Shown: piece by piece, positions 4,353 through 35,927 of the stretch
Layout of the letters: every line of letters starts with the position of its first letter
Numbering within the stretch: the stretch's first letter is position 1
From: a virus
Strand: one strand, 5' to 3'
Virus record (IMG/VR): IMGVR_UViG_3300048904_000120
Length of the DNA stretch: 38,858 nt
Made by a program: the position numbers and the translations under genes
Notes under the pieces: generated by a model
The model's input: only the letters and a program-made list of their open reading frames with translations
Databases searched by the model: none
Told to the model about the DNA's origin: nothing

Positions 4353-4828
4353 GCTGCGTTCCTCTTGAGGACGGAAAACGACTTCTTGCCCTTGGTGCTG
4401 TTGCAGGATCGGCAAAGCGTCTGCAGGTTTTCGAGCGTCGTCGGGCCGCCGTCGCGCTCGGAAATGATATGGTCGCAGCAGAGATCGACGTGCGAGCTGC
4501 ACATGACGCACCGGTACGCATCACGCTCGAAAACAGACTTCGCAAGGGTTCGGCTGATTTTCGCCTTCTGGTAGACGTCCCCCCGGCTTCTTGAGCGGAT
4601 GGCGCCGGAGGCGTACATCTGTTCCTCGATTCGGCGCATCATTTCACCGCCATTCCCGTCGCCCCACTCGCGCATAAACGGGGCAGCCTCTTCGATGGCC
4701 TTTTTGATTCGCCGATCAAACTTGGCGCTCGCGGCCTTCGCCGCCTTCTCGTGGGCGCGCGCCGCAGCCTTCTGCTCCGGTGTCATCCACCATTCGTAGT
4801 CGATGTCCAAGATGCTGTTCACGCTCAC
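4349..4828 (-). CDS. HNH endonuclease
   Basis: C-terminal CVMCSSHVDLCCDHIISERDGGPTTLENLQTLCRSCNSTKG. The GTG start overlaps the cro-like stop. Confidence 0.85.
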   Translation of the reverse strand: MSVNSILDIDYEWWMTPEQKAAARAHEKAAKAASAKFDRRIKKAIEEAAPFMREWGDGNGGEMMRRIEEQMYASGAIRSRSRGDVYQKAKISRTLAKSVFERDAYRCVMCSSHVDLCCDHIISERDGGPTTLENLQTLCRSCNSTKGKKSFSVLKRNAA

Positions 4829-7284: not shown

Positions 7285-8009
7285 TGGTTGACTTACGACT
7301 TGGCGATTGCCTGGAGGTCATGCAGACGATTGCCGACAAGTCGGTTGATCTGATCTTGTGCGATTTGCCCTACGGCACGACCCGTAACAAGTGGGATTCG
7401 GTCATTCCGCTAGAGCAGTTGTGGTCGCATTACAACCGGATCGCGAAGCCGAATGCTGCTGTGGTGCTGACGGCGCAGGCGCCTTTCGACAAGGTGCTCG
7501 GCGCATCGAACGTCGCCGCGCTCCGGTACGAGTGGATATGGCGCAAAGAGGCGGGGACAGGGTTTCTCAACGCCAAGCGCGCGCCACTGAAAGACCATGA
7601 AAACGTGCTCGTTTTCTATCGCGAGTCGCCGACGTACAACCCTCAGATGCGAACGGGGTTCAAGCCGTATAAGTGCGCACAAGGCAAGACCAAAAGCGCG
7701 AACTACGGTGCGCAATCTGGCGCCGTGACGGAAAGCAGCGGCGAGCGTTACCCGCTAACCGTGCTGGACTTCCCTCGCGACAAGAACAAGGTCCATCCCA
7801 CGCAGAAGCCGGTCGCGCTGTTCGAATACCTGATTCGCACGTACACGAACGAAGGCGACACGGTGCTCGATAACTGCATGGGATCGGGCACTACCGGCGT
7901 TGCCGCAGCTCGCACCGGCCGCAAGTTCATCGGCATCGAGCGCGATCCGGGCTACTTCGCCATCGCGACGAATCGCATTGCTGGCGCTCAGTCATTGGAG
8001 GCTGCTTGA
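7284..8009 (+). CDS. DNA methyltransferase (beta-class N6-adenine / N4-cytosine type)
   Basis: Motif IV DLPYG (DLILCDLPYGTT) lies upstream of motif I NCMGSGTTGVAAARTGRKFIGIE. Confidence 0.9.
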   Translation: MVDLRLGDCLEVMQTIADKSVDLILCDLPYGTTRNKWDSVIPLEQLWSHYNRIAKPNAAVVLTAQAPFDKVLGASNVAALRYEWIWRKEAGTGFLNAKRAPLKDHENVLVFYRESPTYNPQMRTGFKPYKCAQGKTKSANYGAQSGAVTESSGERYPLTVLDFPRDKNKVHPTQKPVALFEYLIRTYTNEGDTVLDNCMGSGTTGVAAARTGRKFIGIERDPGYFAIATNRIAGAQSLEAA

Positions 8010-8905
8010 TCGATTACCAGAAGGCCATTGAGACGCACGGCAGCATCAAGGCTGCAGCTCGGGCAAGCGGCATCGCAGAGACGACGTTTCGCGATCGCAT
8101 GAAGGCGGCGAAGCATCAAGACGTGGTGCTGACACTGACGGAAAAGAAGCTGACGAACCGGCTTGCGATTCGCAACGGATCGATCGTCGTCGGCTCTGAC
8201 GCTCACTACTCGCCGAAGCTGGTCACGACCGCGCACAAGGCGTTCTGCAATGTGATCGCGGAGCACGCGAGCGATATCAAGGCCGTGATCCTGAACGGCG
8301 ACCTGCTCGACGGCGCACGTATCTCGAAACACGCCCGTATTGGCTGGCAAAAGACGTGCAGCGTCAAGGACGAGCTAGAGGTGGTGCAGGACCGCTTAGG
8401 CGAGATCGAGGCCGCTGCGCGCGGTATGAAGCTGCTGCGCACGATCGGAAACCATGACGTGAGATTCGACAGCCGCCTGGCTCACTCTGCGCCGGAATAC
8501 GAAGGCATCGCAGGGTTCGCGCTCGCTGACCATCTGCCGGCGTGGAAAGACTCATACAGGATCGACGTCAATGACGACACAGTCATCATCCATTCCGTCG
8601 CAAACGGGATGCACGCAGCCTATAACAACGTCGTCAAGGGTGCCGGATACCACGTCATTACCGGACACACACACCGTCTTCAAGCCGTTCAATTTCGAGG
8701 TTTTGGGCGTCTACGCTACGGAATCGAAACCGGCATGCTCGCCGACCCAAGCCAAGACGAATTTCATTACCTGACCGGCCGCAATGCGAACTGGCAGAGC
8801 GGCTTTGCGCTGCTGACGTGGCGTGATGGCGAGTTGCTGCATCCAGAGTTCTGCTCGGTGCGGGATGACGGCAAGGCGTACTTCCGTGGACAGAGGATGG
8901 CATGA
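8006..8905 (+). CDS. HTH-fused metallophosphoesterase (Mre11/SbcD-style GNHD motif set)
   Basis: TTG start after GGAGG. N-terminal HTH GSIKAAARASGIAETTFRDRMK. Motifs GSDAH, NGDLLDG, GNHD and GHTH. Confidence 0.6.
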   Translation: MIDYQKAIETHGSIKAAARASGIAETTFRDRMKAAKHQDVVLTLTEKKLTNRLAIRNGSIVVGSDAHYSPKLVTTAHKAFCNVIAEHASDIKAVILNGDLLDGARISKHARIGWQKTCSVKDELEVVQDRLGEIEAAARGMKLLRTIGNHDVRFDSRLAHSAPEYEGIAGFALADHLPAWKDSYRIDVNDDTVIIHSVANGMHAAYNNVVKGAGYHVITGHTHRLQAVQFRGFGRLRYGIETGMLADPSQDEFHYLTGRNANWQSGFALLTWRDGELLHPEFCSVRDDGKAYFRGQRMA

Positions 8906-16049: not shown

Positions 16050-16071
16050 TGCCGCTGATCCAGCAATCGAA

Positions 16072-16093
16072 CCCCTCTTCGGAGGGGTTTTTT
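16072..16093 (+). terminator. Intrinsic terminator after the coat gene
   Basis: CCCCTC-TTCG-GAGGGG followed by TTTTTT. Confidence 0.8.
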
Positions 16094-16108: not shown

Positions 16109-16438
16109 ATGCCATACGAAAAATTCCCCGCATGGGCGACTGGTCCCGATGGTGCGCAACGCATCGTCAACAGCCAGGACGAGCTAGACGCGCTCTCTGG
16201 CTTCACGGTGCCTGATTACGTGCCGCCCGTGCCGCGCGAGCAAAAGCCCGATTTCGTCGCCTATCCCAAGTGGATCGGAGATCAGCTTGTGCAGAACGCG
16301 GAAGAAGAATCTGCGCTGCTCGGCTCTGACGACGTGGACACGCGCGAAGCCCTGTTGCAGATCGCAGCAGAGAAGGGCGTGAAGATCGACAAACGCTGGT
16401 CCGATGACAAGATTCGGGCCGCTCTTGAGGCTGTTTGA
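16109..16438 (+). CDS. Hypothetical 109-aa protein
   Basis: Track ORF 15980-16438 trimmed to the first ATG after the terminator. Confidence 0.55.
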   Translation: MPYEKFPAWATGPDGAQRIVNSQDELDALSGFTVPDYVPPVPREQKPDFVAYPKWIGDQLVQNAEEESALLGSDDVDTREALLQIAAEKGVKIDKRWSDDKIRAALEAV

Positions 16439-17151
16439 TGACCACTGCGACCGACCTCATCACGCTCGCGCTGAAGGACATAGGCGCACTCGGTATCGGG
16501 CAGGCGGCAAGCGCAGAAGATACCGCCGATGCACTTGCTACGCTGAACATGATGCTTGGTCAGTGGCAAGGCGAGCGCCTCTCTGTCTATCACCTGGTCG
16601 ACACCGCGATTCCGTCGACCGGGAAACAGACGTACACGGTCGGGACTGGCGGCGATTTCAACGTTCAGCGGCCGATCAAGATCAACGCAGCATATGCGCG
16701 GCTCAATGCGGGCAGCTCGACGCCGATCGATTATCCGGTTCGGATTATCGAGTCGATGGAGGACTATTCGCGCCTGGCATTGAAGGGGCTGCAATCGTTC
16801 CCTGCGTGGGCCTATTACGACCCGGCTTTCCCGCTTGGAAACCTGACGTATTACCCGATCCCGGACAGCACGTTTCAGCTTCACATCGTCACGATGGAGG
16901 CGCTTCCGCAGTTCACGGCGACAGGGCAAGTCATCAACCTGCCGCCTGAGTACATGGCTGCGATTCGCTACAACCTTGGCCTGTATCTCGCGCCGTCGTA
17001 TCAGATCGAGCCGCAGCGTTCGCTTATTGGTCTCGCGCTGAATGCCAAGCGTGTTGTGAAGCGAATGAACAGCCAGATCCCGTCCATGACGATGCCTCGC
17101 GGCCTCGGCTCGAAGCAGCGTTACAACATCTACAGCGGCTCTAATTACTGA
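16438..17151 (+). CDS. Head-to-tail adaptor (P22 gp4-like N-terminus)
   Basis: DLITLALKDIGALGIGQAASAEDTADALATLNMMLGQW resembles the gp4 N-terminal motif. TGATG coupling. Confidence 0.65.
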   Translation: MTTATDLITLALKDIGALGIGQAASAEDTADALATLNMMLGQWQGERLSVYHLVDTAIPSTGKQTYTVGTGGDFNVQRPIKINAAYARLNAGSSTPIDYPVRIIESMEDYSRLALKGLQSFPAWAYYDPAFPLGNLTYYPIPDSTFQLHIVTMEALPQFTATGQVINLPPEYMAAIRYNLGLYLAPSYQIEPQRSLIGLALNAKRVVKRMNSQIPSMTMPRGLGSKQRYNIYSGSNY

Positions 17152-18575
17152 TGCGGATTCCTCTGACTGGCGGTGCGTACACCGCGAAAAGCGTCATCGC
17201 TAACGCACAGCGGTCGGTAAATTTATTTGCTGAGCAGAACCCGCAAGACTCGGCCGCGCAGTTCACGTATTACCCGACGCCGGGCCTCACGCTTGTTTCG
17301 ACGCCGCCCATTGCCGCGGAAAGTCGTTGCATCTACACGGCATCGAATGGCAAGCGTTACGAAGTGGTCGGCATGAATGTCTACTACGTGGATTCGTCGA
17401 ACGTCTATAAGCAGATCGGCGCGCTTTCCACGCTTTCGGGCGTTGTGTCGATGGTCGACAACGGGACGAACGCGTTCATTGTCGACGGCTCCAAGAACGG
17501 ATTCACGGTCGATATCACAACCAATGTGATGATCCCATGCGCTGACCCGGCTTTCTATGGGGCTGATCGCGTGGATTATGTCGACGGCTATTTCGTGTTC
17601 AATCAGCCTGGCACGCAGCACTTCTACATCTCGAAATACAACGACATTACGTTCGATTCGCTAGATATCGCGTCGAAGTCGACGTATTCGGACAATCTCG
17701 TCACGCTTGCGGTGATGCACCGTGAAATCTGGTTGTTCGGCGAGCAGACAACCGAAGTTTGGTACAACACCGGCGCATCAGATTTCACGTTCGGCCGCAT
17801 GCCGGGTGTGTACGTCGAGCATGGATGCGCTGCGAAGCACTCGGTCGCAAAGATCGATCTCGCGCTGTTTTGGGTCGGCAAGGATCTGCAGGGGCAGGGC
17901 GTTGTTTTTGCCGGCCGCAACTACGCGGCTGAGCGGATCTCAACGCACGCGATGGAGCAGGAGTTTCTAACGTACAGCCGGATAGACGACGCGATCGGCT
18001 TTTCGTACCTGCAAGGCGGCCACGCGTTCTACGTGTTGACGTTCCCGACCGCCAATAAGACATGGTGCTTCGACACGGCAACGGGCCAATGGGCTGAGCG
18101 TGGATATCTGGAGGCAGACGGCACATTCAGCCGGCACCGCGCGAACTGCTATTCGTTCAATGGCGGCCAAAACCTCGTTGGCGACTGGGAAACCGGCAAG
18201 GTGTACGCGCTCGACCCGAACGCATACACCGACAACGGTAACCCGCTTCTCTGCGTTCGGGGCTTCCCGCACATCAGCGGAGCCGATGGAAACCGCGTCC
18301 TGTTCCGGCAATTCATCGCGGATATGGAAGTCGGTAACGGCCTGCCCGGCGACTCCGCAGAGCCTGAGATTCGCCTGCGCTGGTCCGATGACCGCGGGCG
18401 CAGTTGGGGAAACGCGGTAACAAACTCGCTTGGCAAGGCTGGCGAATACCTCACGTCGATTCAATGGCAGCGCCTCGGCTATGCGCGCGAACGCGTGTTC
18501 GAACTGTCATGGTCCGCTCCGGTCAAGACTGCGCTTAACGGCGCATGGGTCGATGTGTCGAGGGCCAGGACATGA
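17151..18575 (+). CDS. Tail hub / packaged-DNA stabilisation protein (P22 gp10-like)
   Basis: 474 aa (P22 gp10 is about 472 aa). Gene order matches, and FGEQTTEVWYNTGA resembles a gp10 block. Confidence 0.7.
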   Translation: MRIPLTGGAYTAKSVIANAQRSVNLFAEQNPQDSAAQFTYYPTPGLTLVSTPPIAAESRCIYTASNGKRYEVVGMNVYYVDSSNVYKQIGALSTLSGVVSMVDNGTNAFIVDGSKNGFTVDITTNVMIPCADPAFYGADRVDYVDGYFVFNQPGTQHFYISKYNDITFDSLDIASKSTYSDNLVTLAVMHREIWLFGEQTTEVWYNTGASDFTFGRMPGVYVEHGCAAKHSVAKIDLALFWVGKDLQGQGVVFAGRNYAAERISTHAMEQEFLTYSRIDDAIGFSYLQGGHAFYVLTFPTANKTWCFDTATGQWAERGYLEADGTFSRHRANCYSFNGGQNLVGDWETGKVYALDPNAYTDNGNPLLCVRGFPHISGADGNRVLFRQFIADMEVGNGLPGDSAEPEIRLRWSDDRGRSWGNAVTNSLGKAGEYLTSIQWQRLGYARERVFELSWSAPVKTALNGAWVDVSRART

Positions 18576-19177: not shown

Positions 19178-19516
19178 ATGACAACAACATATAAAGAAAT
19201 GGTGAAGGGCGCGACGCTGACCGGTGCCGCGTCTAGCCTGTACACCGCAGCAACCGCTACGTCGGCATCTATTCAGGCGGCAAGCGCGAACAACCCGACT
19301 GGCGGCGTCGTGACGCTCAACGTCTACAAGGTTCCGGCTGGCCGCTCCGCTGACGGGACGACGCGCATCGCGTCAAAGAACATAGGCGCCGGCGCGACCG
19401 CGCAGTTCCCTGAGCTGGTCAATCACAAACTCGAACCCGGCACGCAGCTTTACGCGGACGGTAACGGCTGCTCGATCAGCATAAGCGGGATCGAATACGT
19501 AAAGGATAGCGCTTGA
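19178..19516 (+). CDS. Hypothetical virion-module protein (112 aa)
   Basis: Track ORF within the late operon. Confidence 0.55.
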   Translation: MTTTYKEMVKGATLTGAASSLYTAATATSASIQAASANNPTGGVVTLNVYKVPAGRSADGTTRIASKNIGAGATAQFPELVNHKLEPGTQLYADGNGCSISISGIEYVKDSA

Positions 19517-20088
19517 GAAACTTCCTGAAGATCGCTGAAGGGCTGAATGTCCAACCCCTGTTGAACGCTGTCTATCGAAAGCCGGATCTGTGGAAGGCCG
19601 ACGACTTCCTGCGCAAGTTTCCGCAAGGGCCGTTCGGAGAAACCGACACGATATATCTGCGCTTTCAAGACAAGGTGAACGTCGAGAACGACGAGCAGCT
19701 TGATCTCTACAAGCAGAACAAACTCGCCGGCCATGATCTGCACGAATGTCCCTGGCGCGACGAGATCAACGAACTGCCTGAAGCGCGCGCACACATCATG
19801 GCGCTTATGTCCTCGATGGGCGCGACGCGGCTCGGGCGCTGCATGTTGAATCGCATCGTCCCGGGCGGCCGGATCTTCCCGCACGCTGATTCGCCTTGGC
19901 ATGCGGAATATTGGGATCGCTATCACATCGTCATCCAATCGGAACCCGGCAACGTGTTCCGCTGCGGTGACGAGCAAGTATGGATGCGTCCCGGTGAAGT
20001 CTGGTGGTTCCAAAACGCGATCGAGCATGAAGTTATCAACAACTCGGCAGAGGATCGCATTCACCTTGTCGTAGATCTGAGGTTCTGA
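19513..20088 (+). CDS. Aspartyl/asparaginyl beta-hydroxylase-family cupin (2OG/Fe(II) oxygenase-like)
   Basis: PHAD...RYHIVI...W.RPGEVWWF.NAIEHEVINNS..DRIHLVVD (HxD...H triad pattern). The TTG start after AAGGA overlaps the upstream stop. Confidence 0.65.
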   Translation: MRNFLKIAEGLNVQPLLNAVYRKPDLWKADDFLRKFPQGPFGETDTIYLRFQDKVNVENDEQLDLYKQNKLAGHDLHECPWRDEINELPEARAHIMALMSSMGATRLGRCMLNRIVPGGRIFPHADSPWHAEYWDRYHIVIQSEPGNVFRCGDEQVWMRPGEVWWFQNAIEHEVINNSAEDRIHLVVDLRF

Positions 20089-20547
20089 ATGATCACATTC
20101 GCAGTCGAGAAGTTCTCGGACGTGTACGGCGAACTGCTTCCGCTTCTGCATGAGCACTACGGCGAAATCTCGCTGCACAAGGAGCACGGCGTTCCGCTCG
20201 ATCCGAAAGTCGATGTATATCGCGCGCGCGAGGCGGATGGTTCGCTGATGATGGTAATCGGGCGCGAGGCGGGCGAGATCGTCGCCTACTTCGTGTGCTT
20301 CATCGCGACGGGTCTTCATTACCAATCGTGCCTGACCTGCTCGCCGGATATTTTCTTCGTCCGCGAAGACAAGCGAACCGGCATGGCTGGCGTTCGCCTG
20401 TTCAAGTTCGTCGAGAAAGAACTTAAGCGCCGCGGCGTGAAGCTCTGGTTTGTCGGCAGCAAGAATGCGCACGACGCGACGGCATTGTTCCGGTTCCTGA
20501 AGTTTGAGCCGGTTGAAACAACCTACTCCAAGTGGTTGGGGGATTAA
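20089..20547 (+). CDS. GNAT-family N-acetyltransferase (probable)
   Basis: 152 aa. A beta4-alphaA-like block IFFVREDKRTGMAGVRLFKFVEKELKRRGVKLWFVG. The start abuts the hydroxylase stop (TGAATG). Confidence 0.5.
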   Translation: MITFAVEKFSDVYGELLPLLHEHYGEISLHKEHGVPLDPKVDVYRAREADGSLMMVIGREAGEIVAYFVCFIATGLHYQSCLTCSPDIFFVREDKRTGMAGVRLFKFVEKELKRRGVKLWFVGSKNAHDATALFRFLKFEPVETTYSKWLGD

Positions 20548-20549
20548 CT

Positions 20550-21299
20550 ATGGTTGCAGCAGCAGTAGGGGTAGGCGCGGCTGTCGCGGGCACCGCAGGC
20601 GCCGCAATGAGTTCGAGCGCTTCCAGAAGCGCCGCGAGCAAACAGGCTGATGCCGCGAACTACGCCGCTGATCTTCAGCAGCAGCAGTGGCAACAGACGC
20701 AGCAGAACCTTCAGCCCTATATGGACTTGGGTTCTAGCTACATCAACCCGCTGAGGGATGCGCTGTCGAACCCCGCGCTTACTCAGAAGTTCAGCGCGCC
20801 AACGGCGGCAGAAGCGCAAGCAACGCCAGGCTATCAATTCACGCTCGGTCAAGGGCTGAAGGCGACGCAAAACAGCGCTGCGGCACGCGGTCTTGGCACG
20901 TCAGGTGCGGCGCTAAAGGGCGCGGCAAACTATGCGACCGGCCTCGCCGACTCGACGTACAACGACGTCTACAACCGTGCCTTGCAGACGTACAACACGA
21001 ACTACAACACGGCATCGAACAACGTCAACCGCTTGCAAAGCGTGGTCGGAAGCGGGCAGAACGCGGCCGCTGGACTCGGCAGCCTCGGCGCGCAGACGGC
21101 GAACAGCATTGGTAACACGCTCACGAGCGCAGCTAACGCAAGCGCGGCCGGCCAGATCGGCTCTGCGAACGCGCTGTCTAACGGCCTGAGCAGCATCGCC
21201 AACGGCGCCAGTACCTATGCGTTGCTGAACAATAACGCGGGCAGCACGAGCGCCGCGGGAACGACGACCGGCAACAACTCTTACGGGTTCACGATCTAA
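20550..21299 (+). CDS. Internal virion / ejection protein (low complexity, A/N/Q/S/G-rich)
   Basis: Its position matches P22 gp7/gp14. N-terminal hydrophobic segment. The ATG at 20550 follows GGGG. Confidence 0.55.
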   Translation: MVAAAVGVGAAVAGTAGAAMSSSASRSAASKQADAANYAADLQQQQWQQTQQNLQPYMDLGSSYINPLRDALSNPALTQKFSAPTAAEAQATPGYQFTLGQGLKATQNSAAARGLGTSGAALKGAANYATGLADSTYNDVYNRALQTYNTNYNTASNNVNRLQSVVGSGQNAAAGLGSLGAQTANSIGNTLTSAANASAAGQIGSANALSNGLSSIANGASTYALLNNNAGSTSAAGTTTGNNSYGFTI

Positions 21300-22783
21300 T
21301 GGCTCTTGATACTTCGATCGCCCTTAACGCGAACGCGCCGCAACCTGCTAATCCACTGCAAACGGCGCTGCAAGTCGCGCAGTTCCGCGCGTACAACGCG
21401 AACGGCCTAGCGGCTCAGCAACAGCTCGCGGCTAACCGGGCAACGTCTGCGGCGTATCAGCAGGCGACCGACGCAACGACAGGCAAAGTCGACAATAACA
21501 AACTCGTCGGCATTCTGAGCCAGAACCCTGACGCGGCATACAACCTACCGCAAGTAATTCAAGGCATCAACACGCAGAATCAGCAGCAAGCCACGCTTGA
21601 TACAACGCGGCTCGATCAAGCCCAAAAGGCGCAGGGCGCGCTTCGTTCCGGCATGGGTTCATTGCTCACGAAGGCGGATCTCTCGCCGTCCGATATCCAA
21701 GGCTTCGTCGGAACGATGGTTGATGCGGGCGCGATTCCGCGACAAGTCGCGGATGCGGAGCTGAAAAGCATGCCGCAAGATCCGGCTCAGATCCGGCCGT
21801 GGCTCGCACAGCACTTCAATGCGGCGCTCTCTGGCGAGCAGCAACTTGCCAACATGAAGCCGCAATTCGCGCAGATCAACACAGGCCCGGCGACTGTTGC
21901 GGTTAATCAGAACCCGAACGCGATTGGCGCGAACGGTCAGTCGATGGGCGTCGGCTCCGTTGGCTACACGGTCGGAAACGGCCTGTCGCCGTCCGATGCC
22001 GCGGCGCAAGTGCCGGTCATCAATCCGGATGGCACGCCAGGTACGCGCAGCAAAGCAAGCGTTCTGCAAGAGCAGGGCTACGGCGACGCGTTGCCAGCAG
22101 GCTTCAAGAGCAACGGCCGATACGGCGCCTCGAATGGTGGCGTCGTTGCAACTGGGCCGGCTGCCGGCACAGTGGAGGCGGTACAGAAGGCGAACGCCGC
22201 GGGCGGCGACATGCTCGTCGCCGATCAGCAGTCGAATGCGCAATCCGGGCAGCGCATCAACATGCTGCAGCAAGCCGGCGACGCGCTCTCGAAGGCGCAG
22301 ACCGGTACGGGCGCAGACAAGCTCAACGCCGTGCGCGGGCTGATTGCAACGCTCGGCGGTCCTGCCGACAAGGTTGCGAGCTACGACGAAGCGAACAAGT
22401 ACCTCACGCAGTACGCGCAGCAAAAGGCGGCTTCTTTCGGTCACGGCACGGATGCGCAGCTCTCCGCTGCAATGTCCGGCAATGGCAACACGAAGATCAG
22501 CAACCTCGCCGCGCAAGACGTCGTGAAGGTCAATCTCGCGCTCGAACGCATGGATCAGGCGCGCATGCAGGCATGGCAGAACGCCGGCTTGCAGCCTTCG
22601 CAATACGCTCAGTGGAAGTCGCAGTTTGGTTCGACGATGGACCCGCGCGTATTCATCGCCGATCAGATGGACCCGGCCAAGATTCAAGGCATGGTCAAGA
22701 AGATGAATCCGAAAGAGCAGGCGACATTCCGCACGCAATATAACTGGGCGGTCCAAAACGGCTATATCAACGGTCCCCAATAA
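21299..22783 (+). CDS. Internal virion / ejection protein
   Basis: 494 aa, Q/A-rich, in a position equivalent to P22 gp20. TAATG coupling. Confidence 0.55.
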   Translation: MALDTSIALNANAPQPANPLQTALQVAQFRAYNANGLAAQQQLAANRATSAAYQQATDATTGKVDNNKLVGILSQNPDAAYNLPQVIQGINTQNQQQATLDTTRLDQAQKAQGALRSGMGSLLTKADLSPSDIQGFVGTMVDAGAIPRQVADAELKSMPQDPAQIRPWLAQHFNAALSGEQQLANMKPQFAQINTGPATVAVNQNPNAIGANGQSMGVGSVGYTVGNGLSPSDAAAQVPVINPDGTPGTRSKASVLQEQGYGDALPAGFKSNGRYGASNGGVVATGPAAGTVEAVQKANAAGGDMLVADQQSNAQSGQRINMLQQAGDALSKAQTGTGADKLNAVRGLIATLGGPADKVASYDEANKYLTQYAQQKAASFGHGTDAQLSAAMSGNGNTKISNLAAQDVVKVNLALERMDQARMQAWQNAGLQPSQYAQWKSQFGSTMDPRVFIADQMDPAKIQGMVKKMNPKEQATFRTQYNWAVQNGYINGPQ

Positions 22784-24957
22784 TGGCGAACTATGACGAT
22801 GCTTTCGAGGCTGCGGGCAAGCAATACAACGTAGACCCGAAGCTTCTGAAGGCCATGATGACTCAGGAAAGCTCGGGCAATCCGAACGCTGTATCTCCGA
22901 AAGAAGCGACCGGCCTGATGCAGTTGATGCCGGCAACCGCTAAGGAGATGGGCGTTTCGAATCCGAGCGATCCAGTTCAGAACATCATGGGCGGCGCTCG
23001 CTACATGGCCCAGATGCTCGACAAATACGGCGACGTGAATACGGCTCTAGCGGCCTATAACGCGGGGCCGGGCGCCGTAGACAAGGCGGGCGGAATCCCG
23101 AACTTCCCGGAAACGCAAGGCTACGTCAAGCGGATCTCCGCCAACTATCAAGGAAAGCCAATGGCGCAATCCGCGCTTCCCGGTCTGCCGCCTACGGCTG
23201 GCGGCGCATCGGCGGGCGATGACCCGTTCAGCAAGCTAATGGGCGGTTCGACAACTGCGGCCGCACCGTCTGCCCCTGCTGCTGACGGCGATCCGTTTAG
23301 CAAACTCATGGCGACGAAGCCGGCCGCACAGCCTGCGCCGGCTGCGCAACCGTCGGCAGGCGCTTCGCCGCAAGGCGAGTGGCACGCGCCCGGCGCTGTG
23401 ACGATGGGTATCGGTGACGTCATCAAAGGCGGCGTTCAGTCGATGGTTCATGGTGGCGCATGGCTTGCCAACAAGATCGCGCCGGACTCGCAGTTCGCCA
23501 AGGATATCAACGCCGCGGTCCCGCAAGTCGATCAGGCGATCACGTCGCAAGATGCGCAATACGCGCAACAGCGAGCGGCGCAGGGCGGCTCTGGCATCGA
23601 CATTGGCCGAGCGGCCGGCAACGTAATTGGCAGTGCGCCGATGATGGCGCTGCCGAGCGGTGCAGGCGGCGGACTGTTGGCGAAGATCGGCGCTGGCGCG
23701 GTATCCGGCCTAGCTAGCGCCGCGGCAACGCCAGTCGTCAACGCTGGCGACAACTACGCGCAGCAGAAGGCTATGCAGCTCGGCACCGGCGCAGCAGTCG
23801 GCGCAGTTGCCAATCCGCTCGTTAGCGCGATCGGGGGAGCTGTCGCACCTAAGATCGGCGAGGCGCAAAAGAAGTTGCTCGATGCGGGTGTGCCGCTCAC
23901 TCCCGGCCAGATCAAGGGCGGGAATTGGTCGAAGGTTGAAGACATGGCGACGAGCCTGCCGGGTGTCGGCAACGTCGTCCGAAATGCTCAGCAACGCGCG
24001 CTTCAGGGCTACAACGCGGCCACCTACGACAAGGTTCTTGAACCTCTCGGCGTGAAATTCGCAGACGTGGCGAATGGGGCGAAGACGGGCAGCGAAGGCG
24101 TTGCCGCGGTCAAGAAGACCATTTCCGACGTCTACGACAATACGCTGTCGCAGATGACGTTCAAGCCGGACGGCCAGTTCCAGCAGGGCTTGCAAGGCTT
24201 GGCGTCGATGGCTCAGTCGTTGCCGGCAACGGAACAGAAGCAGTTCCTCGACACGTTGCAGCGTCAGGTTGCGGGCAAGATCAACCCGCAAACCTTGTCG
24301 ATGGATGGCGCGACGCTCAAGGAAGTTCAGAGCGAATTAGGGCGGCTGTCTCGCGGCTGGTCTAGCGACCCATCTGTCGATAAGCGCAACCTCGGCGCGG
24401 CAGTCGGCGAAGTCAAGAACCTGATTGAGCAATCGCTTGGACGCACCAACGCGCCTGAGTTGGCTGAATCGCTGAAAAGTGCGAACGCCGCGTATGCGAA
24501 CTATGCGCGCTTGCGTGGCGCTGCAGCATCGACCGGCGCGATGAACAACGATGGCGTATTCACCGCGGCGCAGTTGCAAAGCGCAGTGCGTGGCGCGGAC
24601 AAATCGGCCGGGAAGGGCGCAACCGCAACGGGTAACGCGCTGATGCAGGATTGGTCGAGCGCGGGTCAAAGCGTGCTAGGCAATAAGTACCCCGATTCAG
24701 GTACGGCAGGGCGCTCGATGCTCGGCTATCTGCTCGGCGGTGGCGCCTTCGCGGCTCCTGGCGCAATCCTGCCGACGCTGGCTGCCGCTGGCGCGGCGTC
24801 TCTCCCGTACACGCAGGCGGGCGGCAAGCTGGCGACGATGCTACTTACGAAGCGGCCTGCGGCTGCGGTCCCAATAGGGAATGCGCTTTCCCGCTACGGT
24901 GTCCCACTCGCCGCGCCTGCGGGCAACGCGCTCGTCAATGCGATCACAGGCCCTTAG
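22783..24957 (+). CDS. Ejection protein with an N-terminal lytic transglycosylase (SLT) domain
   Basis: MTQESSGNPNAVSPKEATGLMQLMPATAKEMG...AYNAGPGAV, followed by a long A/G-rich region. Confidence 0.85.
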   Translation: MANYDDAFEAAGKQYNVDPKLLKAMMTQESSGNPNAVSPKEATGLMQLMPATAKEMGVSNPSDPVQNIMGGARYMAQMLDKYGDVNTALAAYNAGPGAVDKAGGIPNFPETQGYVKRISANYQGKPMAQSALPGLPPTAGGASAGDDPFSKLMGGSTTAAAPSAPAADGDPFSKLMATKPAAQPAPAAQPSAGASPQGEWHAPGAVTMGIGDVIKGGVQSMVHGGAWLANKIAPDSQFAKDINAAVPQVDQAITSQDAQYAQQRAAQGGSGIDIGRAAGNVIGSAPMMALPSGAGGGLLAKIGAGAVSGLASAAATPVVNAGDNYAQQKAMQLGTGAAVGAVANPLVSAIGGAVAPKIGEAQKKLLDAGVPLTPGQIKGGNWSKVEDMATSLPGVGNVVRNAQQRALQGYNAATYDKVLEPLGVKFADVANGAKTGSEGVAAVKKTISDVYDNTLSQMTFKPDGQFQQGLQGLASMAQSLPATEQKQFLDTLQRQVAGKINPQTLSMDGATLKEVQSELGRLSRGWSSDPSVDKRNLGAAVGEVKNLIEQSLGRTNAPELAESLKSANAAYANYARLRGAAASTGAMNNDGVFTAAQLQSAVRGADKSAGKGATATGNALMQDWSSAGQSVLGNKYPDSGTAGRSMLGYLLGGGAFAAPGAILPTLAAAGAASLPYTQAGGKLATMLLTKRPAAAVPIGNALSRYGVPLAAPAGNALVNAITGP

Positions 24958-25061
24958 ACACCATGCCTTGATACGAGGATATGCGACTGACAAAGTCGCA
25001 ATGCAGGCGGTTGTGAATATAAGCCGCCAAAACTGATCGCTATTCATTTTTTCTCCCTCGA

Positions 25062-25085
25062 CCCCGCCTAGTGCGGGGTTTTTTT
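25062..25085 (+). terminator. Intrinsic terminator
   Basis: CCCCGC-CTAGT-GCGGGG followed by TTTTTTT. Confidence 0.8.
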
Positions 25086-25098
25086 ATTGAGGCAATAC

Positions 25099-27138
25099 AT
25101 GCAGCTTCTGCCGAACGCAAAGCTTCAGTTCGTGGATCAAAACGGCGCGCCTCTGGCGGGTGGCTCCGTCTACTACTACGCTCCCGGAACGACGAACCCG
25201 CTTCCTACGTTTCAGGATAAAGCCGGCACGATCCAGAACACCAACCCCGTATTGCTTGACAGTCGGGGGCAAGCCATCGTATGGGGAAGCGGCACATATC
25301 GTCAAGTTGTTTGCGACGCATCGGGCGTAACGATTTGGGATCAGATCGTTACGGATGCATCGACGGGTCTGATTCAAGGCCAGTTGATCGATGAAGTGTT
25401 CAACGCGGGCGCGGATTTCACTGCGGGCACGACTACCGTCCTGACGCTGGCAAACGTCTACGGCGCAGAGGGTAACGTCTCTGTTGTGTTCGACGGCATC
25501 ACGCAATCGCCGACGACCTACACGCTGAATTTCAAGACGCTCACGTTCAATGCGCCGATTCCGGTCGGCGTATTGCAAGTATGGGTCAAGGGTGGCGTTA
25601 CGCTGCCGATCAATACGCCGGCTGCCGGAAGCGTCGTCGATACCACCGTAGCGCCTGGGTCGGCGCTGTACAACCGCATCAACCACCGTTGGGACGTGAC
25701 AGATCCCAATTTCGGCGCGTGCGGCGATGGCGTGACGGACGATTCGGCCGCGATCAATAAGGCGTTTCAACTCGCTGCGAACGTCGGCGGTGAGGTCTAT
25801 TTCCCGTCGTCCAAAACGTTCCTTATCAAGTCGCCGCTGACGTGTTCGGTTCAGGTTCCGCTTCAGCCCGTTATCGGCACGAACTATCAACTGTATTTCT
25901 CCGATATTCGGACTGTCAGCATCGTTTCGCCCGGAAGAAGCACGATTAGGGCGGGCGCCAGCATGACGACCATGCTGACCATTCAGTACGCGAACGGCAA
26001 TATCGCGCCGTATTACACCAAGATCGACGGCCTCGTGTTCGATGGCAATGGCCTCGCTACGAACGGCGTTCTGCTGAACTACTCGACGCGCTCGCACGTT
26101 GTGCGCAACAGCTTCGTCGGCATGAGCGGCTACGGTCTGGCAAACGCCGGCTATGGTGTCGCTGAATTTCTGTACAACACGTTTGCGACGACAATCGGCA
26201 TTCAGGTTCAACAGGGCGGCGATACCCTGATGGATCACAACGATTTCTATGCTCCGGCGAACTCGAACGGACATATCGGCATCGACATGCAGGGATGGTC
26301 TGGCAACACGCATATCCACAACTCAACGTGGACGGCCGATCCGACTTCGAGCAACGAAACACCGATCCTTCTGCACGCGAATATTTCTGCGCAGACGGGG
26401 CGAGAAGTTCGTGATGTGACGATCAAGAACAACGAGTTTTGCGGTTATGACTTGCCAATTAGCGGCGTGGCAGGTTCGAACAATATGTATAACTGCATCA
26501 TCTCGGGCAATCACAAGACGGCATTGAGCGGGACCAAGATTAGTGCCGCGCTGATTTCGCTGACTGGTCCTGGTCAGTTCATCATCAGCGACAACATCGT
26601 TGGGAACGCTGCGTATCCGGTGCTGAGCGGGAATGTCATCAGCCTTGCCAACGCTTCGCGCATGACGATCAAGGGCAACAAGTTCACGAACCTGCTGAAT
26701 ACGCCAATCGTCCTGACGAACGTTGTTCAATCCAAGGTCTACGACAACGAGTTCTACGACGTCGGCCAGTCGTTGCCTGGCAACGCGATCATTTACCTCG
26801 GGTCGACGTGCGCAACAAACGAGTTCTACCGGAACACGTATAACCAGTCGCAGCCTACATACGGCCAAGTTGGCATCGTTGAAAACACCGGCTGCAACTT
26901 CAACACGGCAACGAACGAAACGTTCATCGGCATCAATCAGCCCTATACGGTCGTTGGCGCGAACAGTAATTTCAAGTTGACTTCGTATGGTTCCGCCGCG
27001 CCGGTAAGCGGGACACATGGCGCGGGTGAAATCGTCTGGAATACGAACCTCAGCAATTCGGCTGGCGTCCCGGTTGGTTTCGTGTGTGTTGCGGGTGGCT
27101 CGCCGGGTACGTGGCGCAGCTTCGGCGTAACGGTTTAA
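25099..27138 (+). CDS. Tailspike 1 (pectate-lyase-like beta-helix depolymerase)
   Basis: N-terminus MQLLPNAKLQFVDQNGAPLAGGSVYYY (fibre/spike anchor type). WDVTDPNFGACGDGVTDDSAAINKA is a Pectate_lyase_3-like motif. Confidence 0.75.
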   Translation: MQLLPNAKLQFVDQNGAPLAGGSVYYYAPGTTNPLPTFQDKAGTIQNTNPVLLDSRGQAIVWGSGTYRQVVCDASGVTIWDQIVTDASTGLIQGQLIDEVFNAGADFTAGTTTVLTLANVYGAEGNVSVVFDGITQSPTTYTLNFKTLTFNAPIPVGVLQVWVKGGVTLPINTPAAGSVVDTTVAPGSALYNRINHRWDVTDPNFGACGDGVTDDSAAINKAFQLAANVGGEVYFPSSKTFLIKSPLTCSVQVPLQPVIGTNYQLYFSDIRTVSIVSPGRSTIRAGASMTTMLTIQYANGNIAPYYTKIDGLVFDGNGLATNGVLLNYSTRSHVVRNSFVGMSGYGLANAGYGVAEFLYNTFATTIGIQVQQGGDTLMDHNDFYAPANSNGHIGIDMQGWSGNTHIHNSTWTADPTSSNETPILLHANISAQTGREVRDVTIKNNEFCGYDLPISGVAGSNNMYNCIISGNHKTALSGTKISAALISLTGPGQFIISDNIVGNAAYPVLSGNVISLANASRMTIKGNKFTNLLNTPIVLTNVVQSKVYDNEFYDVGQSLPGNAIIYLGSTCATNEFYRNTYNQSQPTYGQVGIVENTGCNFNTATNETFIGINQPYTVVGANSNFKLTSYGSAAPVSGTHGAGEIVWNTNLSNSAGVPVGFVCVAGGSPGTWRSFGVTV

Positions 27139-27157: not shown

Positions 27158-28585
27158 ATGACGACGACCGTACCCGTTCAATTGGTCAGTCCCGCAAGTT
27201 CAACGGTAGGCCAGGTTCTGCGCTCTAGCGGAGCTAGCCTGCCTCCCGCATGGGCTTCGCTTTCGGCATCAGATTCTACATTTACTCAGGCGGGAACCGG
27301 CGCGACGCCTGTTTCCGTGCAGTCTGAGCTGCGCACCCGCGTCAATGTAAAGCAGTTCGGCGCTGTAGGCGATGGTGTAACGGATGACACTGCCGCGATC
27401 AATGCCGCATTGGCCGCGGTCAACGTTGCTGGCGGTACGCTGTGGTTCCCGGCAGGCGTCTATATCTGCTCCGGCCAATGGAATATGGCGAACTTCAGCA
27501 ACGTGCATTTGCGTGGCGCCGGGGGCATCTTCCAGGGTGGCAACGCAGTTGGCACGATGATCAAGTTCACGCAATCAGGCTCGACCTCGTGCATCAACAA
27601 CACGGGCGGGATTGGCTGTTCGTTCCATGACATCGTTTTTGCCTACACGAGCGCCACATATAGCGGAACGTTGCTCGATGCCTCCTGCGCGACGCCGCAA
27701 AATATCACGCAGGGCAAGATCGATGGATGCCAGTTCCTTCAGCTCGGAACGACAAACACCGCTGGCAACCTGGTGGCGATCAATAACGTCAGCGGCTACG
27801 TCATCGAGAACTGCATCTTCGCGCGGGCAAACTGCGCGATCCGCGGCGGCTTGAATGGCTCGCTTGGCGCAAGCAACGCCGTCACGGTAAGCAACTGCGA
27901 GATCAGCTACTGCACGACCGCTATTGCCAATCCGAATAACTTTTGGACGATTCTTCGGACTTCATTTGAGCCGGGGCCGTCGCTCGGGCCGTCGCAGATT
28001 TGGAACGATACGTCGAATCCTATTGCGAACCTGACGATTATCGGGTGCTTCTTCGGTGATGTGCAGAACACCGGGACGCACCTGAACTTGACGGGCGTTA
28101 CTAATCTTCTCATCCTCGGGTCGATTTTTGGCGGCGACAACGTCCACGTAACGACCGCGGTTGCGCTCGCTGGAGTGAACACAGGCATCGTCATTCAGGG
28201 TAATACGTTCGTCCAGTTGAATACGGGTATCAGCATTACCGGGACCGTTTCGGGCGGCAGCCTGTCGGGTAACACATTCACGTCGACGACTACGCCGCTC
28301 TTTGGCAAGTCCAGCGCAAGCAATTTCAGCCTTTCGGGCAACGCCGGATTTATCACTGAGAAAACCGGGACTGCGACGATCACGGCTGGCACGTTCAGCG
28401 TAACCGTCAATCATGGATTGGCTGTCACGCCGGGCAATGGTCAGATCGAGTTGGTTCCGGCCGGCGACACGCTCGGCGCGCGTTGGTGGCTTGCTTCGTG
28501 GACGGCAACACAGTTCACGATAACGATCAACGCATCGCAGGCGTCCAACCTCGTTTTCTACTGGCACGCGAACGTGAACCAGTAA
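27158..28585 (+). CDS. Tailspike 2 (pectate-lyase-like beta-helix) with a short N-terminus
   Basis: VNVKQFGAVGDGVTDDTAAINAALAAVNVAGGTLWFPAGVY, plus repetitive beta-helix-like N/G/T-rich turns. Confidence 0.75.
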   Translation: MTTTVPVQLVSPASSTVGQVLRSSGASLPPAWASLSASDSTFTQAGTGATPVSVQSELRTRVNVKQFGAVGDGVTDDTAAINAALAAVNVAGGTLWFPAGVYICSGQWNMANFSNVHLRGAGGIFQGGNAVGTMIKFTQSGSTSCINNTGGIGCSFHDIVFAYTSATYSGTLLDASCATPQNITQGKIDGCQFLQLGTTNTAGNLVAINNVSGYVIENCIFARANCAIRGGLNGSLGASNAVTVSNCEISYCTTAIANPNNFWTILRTSFEPGPSLGPSQIWNDTSNPIANLTIIGCFFGDVQNTGTHLNLTGVTNLLILGSIFGGDNVHVTTAVALAGVNTGIVIQGNTFVQLNTGISITGTVSGGSLSGNTFTSTTTPLFGKSSASNFSLSGNAGFITEKTGTATITAGTFSVTVNHGLAVTPGNGQIELVPAGDTLGARWWLASWTATQFTITINASQASNLVFYWHANVNQ

Positions 28586-34340: not shown

Positions 34341-34700
34341 TTATTTTCGCGCGAGTAAACACAGATCGCGGAAGCCGTTCTGCGATCGCTCATAGCCAAC
34401 TAGGTTCTTGCTCATCCATGCGGGCGGTTCGGCGCGCTTCGTCTTGCTGTCGATCGCCTCCCGAAGTTGCTCACCTTCCAATAACTCGAACGTGATGGCG
34501 CCGCGCTTGCTGTTGTTGCGCCAGACCATGCCCTTCTGCACCATCAGATGCAGCGTGTCTCGCACGCAAGCCCGTGGGCGTCCCGGCAGTAGTCCCATCA
34601 CTTCTTCTTGCGAATACGCGCGTCCTGCCTGCATGGCGTCTGCCAGCTCGTGCGGAGATATCGTTTCCGGCTGACGGCCGATGTTGATTGTGTTTTTCAT
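34341..34700 (-). CDS. Hypothetical 119-aa protein
   Basis: Track ORF with ATGA coupling to the upstream gene. Confidence 0.65.
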   Translation of the reverse strand: MKNTINIGRQPETISPHELADAMQAGRAYSQEEVMGLLPGRPRACVRDTLHLMVQKGMVWRNNSKRGAITFELLEGEQLREAIDSKTKRAEPPAWMSKNLVGYERSQNGFRDLCLLARK

Positions 34701-35122
34701 GCTGCCTCAGCTTCCATTTTTCCATCGCGAACGAACTTCCATTCGTCGTATGCGCGATCCCAGGTTGCGAACTTTTCTTCTCTGCTTGCCTTGCCGGCGT
34801 CTAGCCATTGATGGCACCAATGACAGCCCGGAACGGTGTAGGCGTGGTCAGCCTTCAACCCCATTCCTTTGCCGTGCTTGCCCTGGTTGCTATGGCAGGG
34901 GACAACGATATCGGGCGAAGCGTCTCCGCCGCACACGACGCCGAGAAAGCATCGTTCGCCGCGGCACGCTGCAAGGTACTTTGAGCCTTCGGCTACGGTT
35001 GGCTTCTTGATGCGCGACTTCATCGCCGTGCGCTTGATCGTCGTCTTTCGATCGGCCAGCTCGAACGGCTTCGGCTCGGGGCGCTTGAATCCGGTACGCT
35101 TCATCGGTGCGGATCGTTTCAT
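34697..35122 (-). CDS. YbcO / DUF1364-like putative nuclease
   Basis: The C-terminal 141 aa of track ORF 34697-35608. CRGERCFLGVVCGGD...VVPCHSNQGKHGKGMGLKADH...CHWCH. ATGA coupling at 35119-35122. Confidence 0.6.
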   Translation of the reverse strand: MKRSAPMKRTGFKRPEPKPFELADRKTTIKRTAMKSRIKKPTVAEGSKYLAACRGERCFLGVVCGGDASPDIVVPCHSNQGKHGKGMGLKADHAYTVPGCHWCHQWLDAGKASREEKFATWDRAYDEWKFVRDGKMEAEAA

Positions 35123-35532
35123 CGCGCGGCTTCCGATGAACGTACAGTAAGCTGCCAGAAGGGATTGAAGGTTCCGCGCTTGATCGCATCCTTGGCAAGC
35201 AGCAGACCGTACAGCTTGTCCCGGTAGCGCGCAGACGCATCGGCCCGCGCACGTTTTTTGTCGAACTCGACATCGCGCTTGCTGCCTGCGCGGTAGATCG
35301 CCGCAGCGCCGTCGCCGCCACGTCCGCCGACGCGCTGGCTCCAGTCGCAGATATAGACTTGCTTCGGCTTGGCCGTGTGCATGTTGTTGATGTGCTTGCG
35401 TACGCCGCTGACAGACATTCCCATCATGGCCGCGATCTGCGGAACGGTTGCAGGCTCTTTCTGTAACAGTTCGACGATGAGTCGCCTGTTCTGGTAGCGC
35501 GAGCTGTTCGGGTCTTTGGGGCTTCCTCTCAT
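35119..35532 (-). CDS. wHTH DNA-binding protein
   Basis: RRLIVELLQKEPATVPQIAAMMGMSVSGVRKHINNMH. Confidence 0.6.
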   Translation of the reverse strand: MRGSPKDPNSSRYQNRRLIVELLQKEPATVPQIAAMMGMSVSGVRKHINNMHTAKPKQVYICDWSQRVGGRGGDGAAAIYRAGSKRDVEFDKKRARADASARYRDKLYGLLLAKDAIKRGTFNPFWQLTVRSSEAAR

Positions 35533-35927
35533 GCTGCAAATTCCTCGTAACTTGCCGGCGCACTCCAGCGCACGCCTCGTTCGGATCCGAAAGCCTGGAT
35601 AAGCTCACAAAGATCCGAAAACATGCGCTTCGTCATTCGCGACGTGCTCTGTCCGAGCGCAATAAACCCGGTGCCTTCCATGTTCGGAACGACGGTCATC
35701 TTCTGAAGCGACGCACTGAAAAAATCCTTCCACTCAGCAGGCGTCAGCTTGCGGCCGTACCACTCGACTTGATTCGATACGTCCGTCAGGAGCGCCCACA
35801 GGAGCGCGTTTTGATCGTTCGATCGGGTAGGGGCGGAAAGCGTCAGCACATCGCCGTCAGGGCGGCGCTTGAGGCATTCGATCGCGTATGCGCGGCTCGT
35901 CGGCGTAAGGTAGATGGTTTCTTTCAT
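35529..35927 (-). CDS. ninB: NinB (Orf) recombination mediator
   Basis: Strong resemblance to lambda NinB: RSNDQNALLWALLTDVSNQVEWYGRKL...GQSTSRMTKRMFSDLCELIQAFGSERGVRWS. Confidence 0.9.
   Translation of the reverse strand: MKETIYLTPTSRAYAIECLKRRPDGDVLTLSAPTRSNDQNALLWALLTDVSNQVEWYGRKLTPAEWKDFFSASLQKMTVVPNMEGTGFIALGQSTSRMTKRMFSDLCELIQAFGSERGVRWSAPASYEEFAA

Follow-up and report, generated by a model that had tools for sequence, protein, structure and literature searches.

In podoviruses such as T7 and P22, the small gene that precedes the ejection-protein genes (T7 gene 13, P22 gene 14) has been poorly understood for decades, and in the T7 gene 13 type it is needed for infectious particles yet is reported to be absent from them. 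What this position does is a question raised again by a viral sequence of 38,858 nucleotides (IMG/VR record IMGVR_UViG_3300048904_000120, the whole of which is called the window here), where a late operon carries two enzyme-like genes, for a hydroxylase and a GNAT acetyltransferase, directly upstream of the first ejection gene. The reading we favour, at somewhat less than even confidence, is that the GNAT is the acetyltransferase of the podovirus slot for internal virion protein A (IVP-A) and the hydroxylase its partner, so that the two form a two-enzyme module acting on the maturation or assembly of ejection proteins.

The first gene of the pair (19513-20088, + strand, TTG start) encodes 191 amino acids and matches the Asp_Arg_Hydrox family of Pfam (PF05118; residues 85-189, E=3.6e-16, 59.8 bits with a cut-off of 22.6). 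The initial annotation, which also defined the two open reading frames (ORFs) as they are given here, had read it as a cupin of the Asp/Asn hydroxylase family with a PHAD...H(E) triad, and this was borne out: the pattern corresponds to P123-H124-A125-D126 ... H172-E173 and the triad is intact. An AlphaFold2 (AF2) model (pLDDT 90.3, pTM 0.87) has the double-stranded beta-helix (cupin) fold, and Foldseek returned 472 PDB matches to it at E<=1e-3, led by Fe(II)/2-oxoglutarate (2OG) oxygenases of the same family. The top matches are L-proline cis-4-hydroxylase 4p7w (1e-9), the beta-hydroxylase 7v4f, human AspH and proline 3-hydroxylase, a ranking with which profile-to-sequence searches agree. H124 and D126 line up with the H-x-D of 4p7w and 1e5r, H172 with their H and R182 with their R; we take H124, D126 and H172 to be the iron ligands and R182 to be the arginine that binds the C5 carboxylate of 2OG. 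All four are invariant in our alignments A1, A2 and A4, including relatives at 25-27% identity, and among 151 family domains, taken from representatives of 50%-identity clusters, H124 is kept in 149, D126 in 148, H172 in 144 and R182 in 143. With this H124-x-D126...H172 plus R182 site intact in its sequence, the protein appears to be a soluble, catalytically competent Fe(II)/2OG hydroxylase; it has no hydrophobic segment (maximum Kyte-Doolittle mean over 19 residues, 0.75).

The second gene (20089-20547, + strand, ATG start) encodes a protein of 152 amino acids that has no Pfam match at E<0.01 and that was initially called GNAT-like, a label supported by a match to the 'acetyltransferase' family phrog_1249 (2.4e-10) and by structure. 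Its AF2 model (pLDDT 84.2) shows the expected GNAT order of strands and helices and has 445 PDB matches at E<=1e-3, all of them GNATs among the matches listed and with no substrate class favoured; phosphinothricin, arsinothricin, glyphosate and aminoglycoside acetyltransferases are found there together with RimI and N-terminal acetyltransferases. Homologues in the same slot of other loci exceed the cut-off of Pfam Acetyltransf_1 (20.7 bits), with 33.4 bits in L103, 32.4 in L006, 28.8 in L004, 26.4 in L005, 24.0 in L002 and 23.2 in L111, and the profile of the whole family matches solved GNATs at E = 3e-4. Across 39 family sequences H23, E26, Y67, R96 and K125 are invariant, while H77, Y78 and D87 are found in 38. 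The loop past strand 4 reads R96-T-G-M-A-G (R-x-G-x-x-G), its G101 being kept in 35 of the 39. In the model the invariant polar residues fall on helix 1, on strands 3 and 4 with the loop that follows strand 4, and on the end of strand 5, elements that, judged by the secondary-structure layout, would form the usual GNAT active-site region. The product of 20089-20547 is, as modelled, a protein of the GNAT acetyltransferase fold. For both models the Foldseek check proposed initially returned enzyme folds and not ordinary structural ones, with the catalytic residues of the hydroxylase in place.

Both genes are tightly built into the operon. The TTG start of the hydroxylase (19513-19515) overlaps the TGA stop (19514-19516) of an upstream ORF of 112 codons and has AAGGA 7 nt 5' of it, and its own stop (TGA, 20086-20088) abuts the ATG of the GNAT (20089-20091), which is preceded by GAGG 6 nt upstream; the translational coupling described in the initial annotation (TTG/TGA at 19513-19516, TGAATG at 20086-20091) was read identically. 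Two intrinsic-terminator-like hairpins on the + strand bound the transcription unit, one behind the coat gene (16069-16090) and a strong one behind the last ejection gene (25060-25080), and between them neither a sigma-70-like + strand promoter nor a strong terminator was found. The pair, which has neither element at its flanks, is therefore an integral part of the late operon, as had been suggested, and not an independently promoted moron. Its GC content is slightly lower (0.55-0.585 in windows) than in the nearest flanks (about 0.59-0.62). The hydroxylase has a median ratio of non-synonymous to synonymous substitution (dN/dS) of 0.075 and the GNAT one of 0.098, with 0.11 for the gp10-like gene of the same operon; both are genuine genes, and purifying selection on them is strong. 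An antisense ORF of 340 codons spans both of them (19450-20472, minus strand); as the + strand genes have homologues and low dN/dS, it is most likely a by-product of the high G+C content.

These features bear on a role in envelope remodelling, one of three proposed in the initial annotation, in which an LpxO-like hydroxylase and an acetyltransferase would alter lipid A or lipopolysaccharide (LPS) late in infection or in lysogens. The hydroxylase does share its Pfam family with LpxO, and the phage has LPS- or polysaccharide-directed tailspikes. However, the NCBIfam equivalog model for LpxO (NF033391) scores only 13 bits with a cut-off of 500, the hydroxylase lacks the membrane segment of the membrane-bound LpxO, there is no independent promoter for expression in a lysogen, and the GNAT is a soluble protein of 152 amino acids unlike the membrane acyltransferases of O-antigen acetylation. 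An LpxO-like lipid A function was therefore rejected on the score and the missing hydrophobic segment, and envelope remodelling as a whole is highly improbable.

The hydroxylase is rare in deposited phages and frequent in metagenomes and prophages. By megablast the window has no nucleotide similarity to deposited phages, and hydroxylase relatives occur in only 3 of 50,697 deposited phage genomes. Pseudomonas phage PfAn1 (L001, PV364321) has the closest one (52% identity), with the GNAT adjoining and the internal virion proteins next; Limnohabitans phage DC33 (L002, PQ492659; 27%) carries the pair as well; and MW202665 (25%) has a lone hydroxylase that a 'DNA ejection' gene follows directly and that has a 190-aa protein 5' of it, not detectably a GNAT. 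None of the 45 deposited genomes with a relative of the gp10-like protein has the hydroxylase. On the other hand, there are 896 matches in a 90%-clustered collection, many of them on contigs of 36-40 kb, at least 470 in IMG/VR, and 189 representatives of 50%-identity clusters at E<=1e-30. Many matches also lie in genomes of Burkholderia, Cupriavidus, Ralstonia, Paraburkholderia and Pseudomonas.

Wherever a full-length relative was surveyed, the GNAT was nearly always next to it. Of the 80 best IMG/VR loci, 79 have it directly 3' of the hydroxylase (the remaining contig ends 118 nt past the hydroxylase), as do all 31 bacterial-genome loci with a full-length relative; 49 partial bacterial matches, mostly in Bacteroidota, are other paralogues without a GNAT. 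This is the synteny survey that the initial annotation had called for. Altogether both genes are present in 112 surveyed loci (97 unique), their tblastn matches mostly 3-12 nt apart. Moreover, the two can be one polypeptide: among the 150 best representatives there are at least 10 complete proteins with the hydroxylase N-terminal and the GNAT C-terminal, plus 2 truncated ones, and the GNAT profile matches the fusion proteins over its full length (E = 1e-28 to 3e-44). The fusion P0333 (368 aa) was found intact as an ORF twice, on independent contigs from separate samples, and stands directly 5' of a gp7-like gene of phrog_598.

The pair, or the fusion, precedes ejection genes on more than one structural backbone. 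A 'DNA ejection' PHROG follows the pair or fusion directly in the window and in loci L118 and L179 (phrog_598) as well as in L103 (phrog_4287), and in L003 a hydroxylase alone stands directly 5' of an ejection gene of phrog_21132. The backbones of L103 and L111 have no detectable similarity to the tail genes of the window, and there the 5' neighbour of the pair is a virion protein of phrog_3287; downstream, L103 continues with its ejection protein and a 1015-aa protein with a lytic transglycosylase (SLT) domain, L111 with three large proteins of no assigned family. Alleles are reshuffled among loci, some of which combine a hydroxylase at 57% with a GNAT at 85% identity to the window and others 90% with 69%, while in still others a pair 85-90% identical to that of the window sits on a backbone at about 50%. 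The Spearman coefficient between the pairwise identities of the hydroxylase and those of the GNAT is 0.49, no better than that of either protein with gp10 or gp7, and this only moderate correlation gives no specific signal of co-evolution. Reassortment combined with near-universal adjacency indicates a mosaic module that is always kept together, and the hydroxylase is an obligate partner of the GNAT.

Such a module might also be aimed at the host, as a mobile cassette that landed in a permissive site of the late operon and whose products modify a host protein late in infection or counter a defence, for which a bacterial prolyl hydroxylase acting on EF-Tu, ribosomal oxygenases and RimI-type acetyltransferases could serve as models. 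High conservation on different phage backbones, cassette-like reassortment, the concentration of carriers in one host group, Burkholderiales, and the RimI and N-terminal acetyltransferases among the structural neighbours of the GNAT would all suit this explanation. We nevertheless regard it as quite unlikely: the pair is translationally coupled to structural genes and has no promoter of its own, a chance landing would hardly account for its return to one functional slot on backbones that are unrelated and in fusions, the anti-phage-defence models of PADLOC gave no matches, and elsewhere the ejection module has a homologous GNAT as a constant part.

This last point leads to the identity of the slot. 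Relatives of the window GNAT were found by tblastn in 17 deposited phage genomes, with 27-37% identity and 93-99% query coverage (E = 1e-9 to 1e-22) for the genes that hold the slot in KZY1, GP100 and the Vibrio phages 1.253.O and 1.235.O. In these Zobellviridae (Vibrio phages 1.253.O and relatives, Pseudomonas phage GP100 and the oyster-metagenome phage KZY1) and in MW202796, the GNAT lies between the tail hub/tubular B gene and the internal virion proteins, with no hydroxylase. By sequence comparison, the window GNAT is directly homologous to these slot proteins. T7 gene 13 and P22 gene 14 hold the equivalent position. A non-structural gene at this place in phiRIO-1-like phages matches acetyltransferases in HHpred (Hardies et al. 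2016, PMC4819975), and a cobavirus GNAT was likewise equated with T7 IVP-A (Bischoff et al. 2019, PMC6775973). What all of them have in common with the window GNAT is a small gene (about 135-165 aa) directly 5' of the first ejection or internal virion protein (gp14 in T7, gp7 in P22); P22 gp14 (DUF2824, annotated 'head morphogenesis') has 151 amino acids and the window GNAT 152. In PAE2, the closest of the gp10 relatives, a homologue of the 112-aa protein comes first, then a 135-aa protein showing a faint GNAT signal, and then the gp7-like gene. The GNAT is thus the expected occupant of the IVP-A slot, this phage's version of a recurrent podovirus gene, and only the hydroxylase is an addition; neither T7 gene 13, P22 gene 14 nor the Zobellviridae-type GNATs are accompanied by one. 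The initial suspicion that the pair is no standard part of P22-like modules consequently holds for the hydroxylase, which is unusual, but not for the GNAT, whose slot recurs in T7, P22, Zobellviridae and cobaviruses.

The slot is also informative about the function of its occupants. T7 IVP-A is needed for morphogenesis but does not stay in the virion (Hardies et al. 2016, PMC4819975, citing Kemp et al.), and a second role from the initial annotation, ejection of the enzymes into the host, finds no support in view of this reported absence. The remaining one of its three, modification of virion or ejection proteins, fits the comparative evidence best. Slot proteins have been described as assembly factors with no enzymatic activity shown (Hardies et al. 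2016, PMC4819975), and in the literature we found neither an activity nor a substrate is reported for T7 gp13, P22 gp14 or the GNATs of Zobellviridae, cobaviruses and phiRIO-1-like phages.

Other small domains occur in the slot too. In several gp10 relatives a small cupin-like protein is encoded just 5' of the gp7-like gene: in Vibrio phage VvAW1 (gp04; L178, 8433-8927), in Rhodoferax phage P26218 (N-terminal part of gp30; L176, 7741-8616) and, unannotated, in MW202557 (L013, about 4413-4769). This cupin, variously annotated 'RmlC-like jelly roll', 'short tail fibre' or 'adhesin', is present in 76 deposited phage genomes. VvAW1 gp04 has no detectable relationship to the hydroxylase, and at least four hydroxylase representatives (P0420, P0441, P0421 and P0346) are fused to a domain of the small-cupin family (E = 5e-16 to 7e-6). 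With GNATs, hydroxylase fusions and small cupins in one position, the slot hosts a changing set of small enzyme-like domains. Two minor observations concern these cupin proteins. VvAW1 gp04 gave a weak tblastn match to positions 23819-24034 of the window, inside the SLT ejection protein (27% over 79 aa, E=3e-4 in a three-sequence database), and the C-terminal half of P26218 gp30 carries a SET-like signature (RYTNHSPNP ... EVTIDY; Pfam SET E=0.015, below the cut-off), whose reading as a possible protein lysine methyltransferase was not confirmed by a PDB sequence search.

The description of slot proteins as assembly factors invites the explanation that the hydroxylase and the GNAT are non-catalytic chaperones, their folds serving as binding scaffolds for ejection proteins and their enzyme-like residues being relics. 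The window GNAT, with its score below Pfam thresholds and its non-canonical coenzyme A (CoA) loop, and the small, apparently non-catalytic cupin in the same slot of related phages would agree with this. However, relic sites are expected to decay, whereas about 95-99% of the 151 divergent domains still have the metal and 2OG ligands, all invariant polar residues of the GNAT are retained, and the hydroxylase has the low dN/dS given above. Chaperones of this kind are improbable, and given the ligand conservation a purely non-catalytic role for the pair is unlikely.

In the favoured reading, that of a module for ejection-protein maturation, both enzymes would be made late and in the cytoplasm, from a transcript common with the ejection proteins. 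They would act together on a shared substrate or inside one complex. The likeliest substrate would be ejection proteins, one or several, or else a different component of the virion, and it would receive hydroxylation and N-acetylation before or during procapsid loading. The folds, the intact active-site residues, the place in the operon, the adjacency, the fusions and the purifying selection are shown; activity of both proteins, their cooperation and an ejection or virion protein as their target, rather than a small molecule or host protein, are what we infer. The pairing or fusion of a slot member with an enzyme of near-perfectly conserved catalytic residues argues that the slot performs chemistry. 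A bolder form of this reading would make the slot a genuine enzyme system that covalently matures ejection or virion proteins before procapsid loading, represented here by a 2OG hydroxylase plus a GNAT that are sometimes one polypeptide; we consider this possible but doubtful. If true, the T7 gp13 / P22 gp14 class would consist of modifying enzymes and not of passive assembly factors.

Several findings weigh against ejection-protein maturation. Our hhalign comparisons of the GNAT family with P22 gp14, T7 gp13, PAE2 gp12 and PBR31 orf028 were not significant, either with the first alignment or with a broadened profile of 39 sequences; they reached E=0.09 for a 22-sequence alignment of P22 gp14 (PF11039) and E=0.2-0.7 for the single sequence of T7 gp13 (PF11090), in both cases with shallow alignments and no secondary structure. 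We therefore base the equivalence with these two proteins on synteny and on the published HHpred matches. The acetyl-CoA loop of the GNAT, R-x-G-x-x-G, deviates from the canonical R/Q-x-x-G-x-G/A motif. In DC33 the pair lies between terminase and portal, away from the ejection genes. Hydroxylase alleles reassort independently of GNAT and backbone, with no sign of co-evolution with a particular phage protein, and the hydroxylase is often far better conserved than the adjoining ejection proteins (e.g. 88-90% vs 33-55%). Further, the Asn, Asp, Pro, Lys and Gln content of gp7-like proteins is equal in phages with and without the hydroxylase. Finally, the nearest characterised relatives of the hydroxylase, proline 3-/4-hydroxylases and a nucleoside-antibiotic beta-hydroxylase, act on free amino acids or small molecules, and small-molecule acetyltransferases are among the structural neighbours of the GNAT.

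Some of these points would be met by a small-molecule pathway, in which a free metabolite of the infected cell, such as an amino acid or polyamine, is first hydroxylated by the hydroxylase and then N-acetylated by the GNAT. Its product, or the removal of its substrate, would aid assembly, DNA packaging or infection, and the position in the IVP-A slot would reflect timing and not a protein target. Among solved structures the free L-proline cis-4- and cis-3-hydroxylases and the nucleoside-antibiotic enzyme indeed rank ahead of AspH, the weak best NCBIfam matches of the hydroxylase include a 'putative nonproteinogenic amino acid hydroxylase', and the acetyltransferases for phosphinothricin, arsinothricin, glyphosate and aminoglycosides provide fitting neighbours for the GNAT. 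Consecutive enzymes of a pathway are commonly fused, the hydroxylase is much better conserved than the structural proteins around it, and the pair of DC33 is intact despite its distant location. On the other hand, slot GNATs are widespread in podoviruses that have no hydroxylase at all, the T7 counterpart has been reported to serve in morphogenesis, the ejection genes that adjoin the pair or fusion belong to three different families, and no transporter or further pathway gene is linked. On balance a metabolite pathway seems unlikely, but together with a host-protein target it is a serious rival of the favoured reading. Should the target nonetheless be a metabolite or a host protein, the pair would represent a widespread, late-expressed auxiliary module.

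Compared with characterised hydroxylases, the phage enzyme has the same double-stranded beta-helix core, HxD...H triad and C-terminal arginine as L-proline cis-4-hydroxylase (4p7w), proline 3-hydroxylase (1e5r) and the nucleoside-antibiotic beta-hydroxylase (7v4f), its best profile and structure matches, and resembles them in being a soluble single-domain protein of similar size. Identity to them is only 15-20%, however, and they act on free amino acids or antibiotic intermediates in biosynthetic clusters, whereas the phage gene lies in a virion-assembly operon beside a GNAT. Human AspH and Salmonella LpxO have the Pfam family in common with it, the profile alignment spanning the catalytic half. 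AspH has a tetratricopeptide-repeat substrate-binding domain, a membrane anchor and an unusual two-histidine iron site; in contrast, the phage protein has the full HxD...H triad and no extra domain.

A link between the two enzyme types has precedents. Bacterial peptide-modification neighbourhoods connect a 2OG dioxygenase belonging to the beta-hydroxylase family and a GCN5-like acetyltransferase, and in some of them the presumed substrates are encoded too, as proteins resembling phage tail collars or collagen (Iyer, Abhiman, de Souza and Aravind 2010, PMC2938197). Those neighbourhoods are, however, cellular operons with sulfotransferases, methyltransferases or peptide synthetases, and a two-gene or fused module in the ejection operon of a podovirus is not described there. 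Asp/Asn/Pro-hydroxylase-like proteins are already widely annotated in phages and viruses. Our literature search found no paper tying a beta-hydroxylase to internal virion or ejection proteins, none describing a hydroxylase-GNAT module or fusion in an ejection operon, and none on PfAn1. Thus, the acetyltransferase-like occupant of the IVP-A slot and beta-hydroxylase/acetyltransferase associations were known, while the obligatory pairing or fusion of hydroxylase and GNAT in an operon for ejection proteins, of which we found no description, is apparently new. Maturation of ejection or virion proteins by the pair predicts marks of +16 Da and +42 Da on them that are lost in active-site mutants. Pseudomonas phage PfAn1 is a culturable carrier, and prophages of Burkholderia, Ralstonia, Cupriavidus and Paraburkholderia commonly contain the module.

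Around the pair the operon has the P22-like order proposed in the initial annotation, with which the Pfam and PHROG searches agree. The gp10-like gene, the gene for the 112-aa protein and the three ejection genes are, like the pair, on the + strand. A gp4-like adaptor (16435-17151, assigned by the same family searches) is followed by a P22 gp10-like head-closure/tail hub protein (Hc3; 17151-18575; phrog_578, 1.1e-113, with PF11134 matched on the identical gene in L008), a fibre-like ORF of 209 codons and the gene for the 112-aa late-operon protein (19178-19516; phrog_20100, 1.4e-8). The latter is independent of the pair, because Pseudomonas phage PAE2, which lacks the pair, has a homologue of it that is 52% identical. 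After hydroxylase and GNAT come a P22 gp7-like/IVP-B 'DNA ejection' protein (20550-21299; phrog_598, 2.1e-33, and a weak Pfam P22_gp7 match), a 494-aa protein (21299-22783) and a 724-aa IVP-D-like third ejection or internal virion protein (22783-24957) with an N-terminal SLT domain (Pfam SLT, 9.5e-32) that also matches phrog_342, 'internal virion protein with endolysin domain'. The 494-aa protein has no family match in the Pfam and PHROG searches; it is conserved 3' of the pair in related loci and is placed by synteny as the second ejection or internal virion protein, at the position of P22 gp20 / T7 IVP-C. The gp7-like gene most likely starts at ATG 20550, 3 nt past the GNAT stop at 20547, since a hydrophobic N-terminal stretch that begins there is kept in homologues starting 6-15 nt past the GNAT; in related contigs (e.g. 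L008) gene callers picked the ATG equivalent to 20607.

A few further observations were made on the hydroxylase family and its carriers. Seven long proteins (P0366, P0411, P0448, about 965 aa, P0372, P0405, P0416 and P0394) have two tandem hydroxylase-like domains, followed in the 965-aa forms by a large C-terminal domain of no assigned function; they look cellular rather than viral and would extend the family beyond phages. Besides its fusion gene, the low-GC phage-like contig L179 has genes for a cysteine-dioxygenase-like cupin (phrog_7851, 2e-40) and for a kinase of the PfkB family (120-1386) and, further on, a CTP_transf_like (cytidylyltransferase-like) protein and a faint NT5C-like match, an unusual set of metabolic genes to occur together. 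DC33, with a 39-kb genome that includes terminase and portal, is filed under Inoviridae, which looks like a taxonomy error, and the head-closure and minor-tail genes of PfAn1 run on the strand opposite to the rest of the structural module.

Elsewhere in the window, two successive tailspike-like genes with pectate-lyase/beta-helix signatures (25087-27138 and 27158-28585) lie past the downstream hairpin; their N-terminal parts are common to related contigs, and the remainder is highly variable among loci. The early/middle region holds a metallo-phosphoesterase-like gene (8006-8905, phrog_221), and a 302-aa protein with a C-terminal HNH endonuclease domain (phrog_131) is encoded on the minus strand at 34697-35608.

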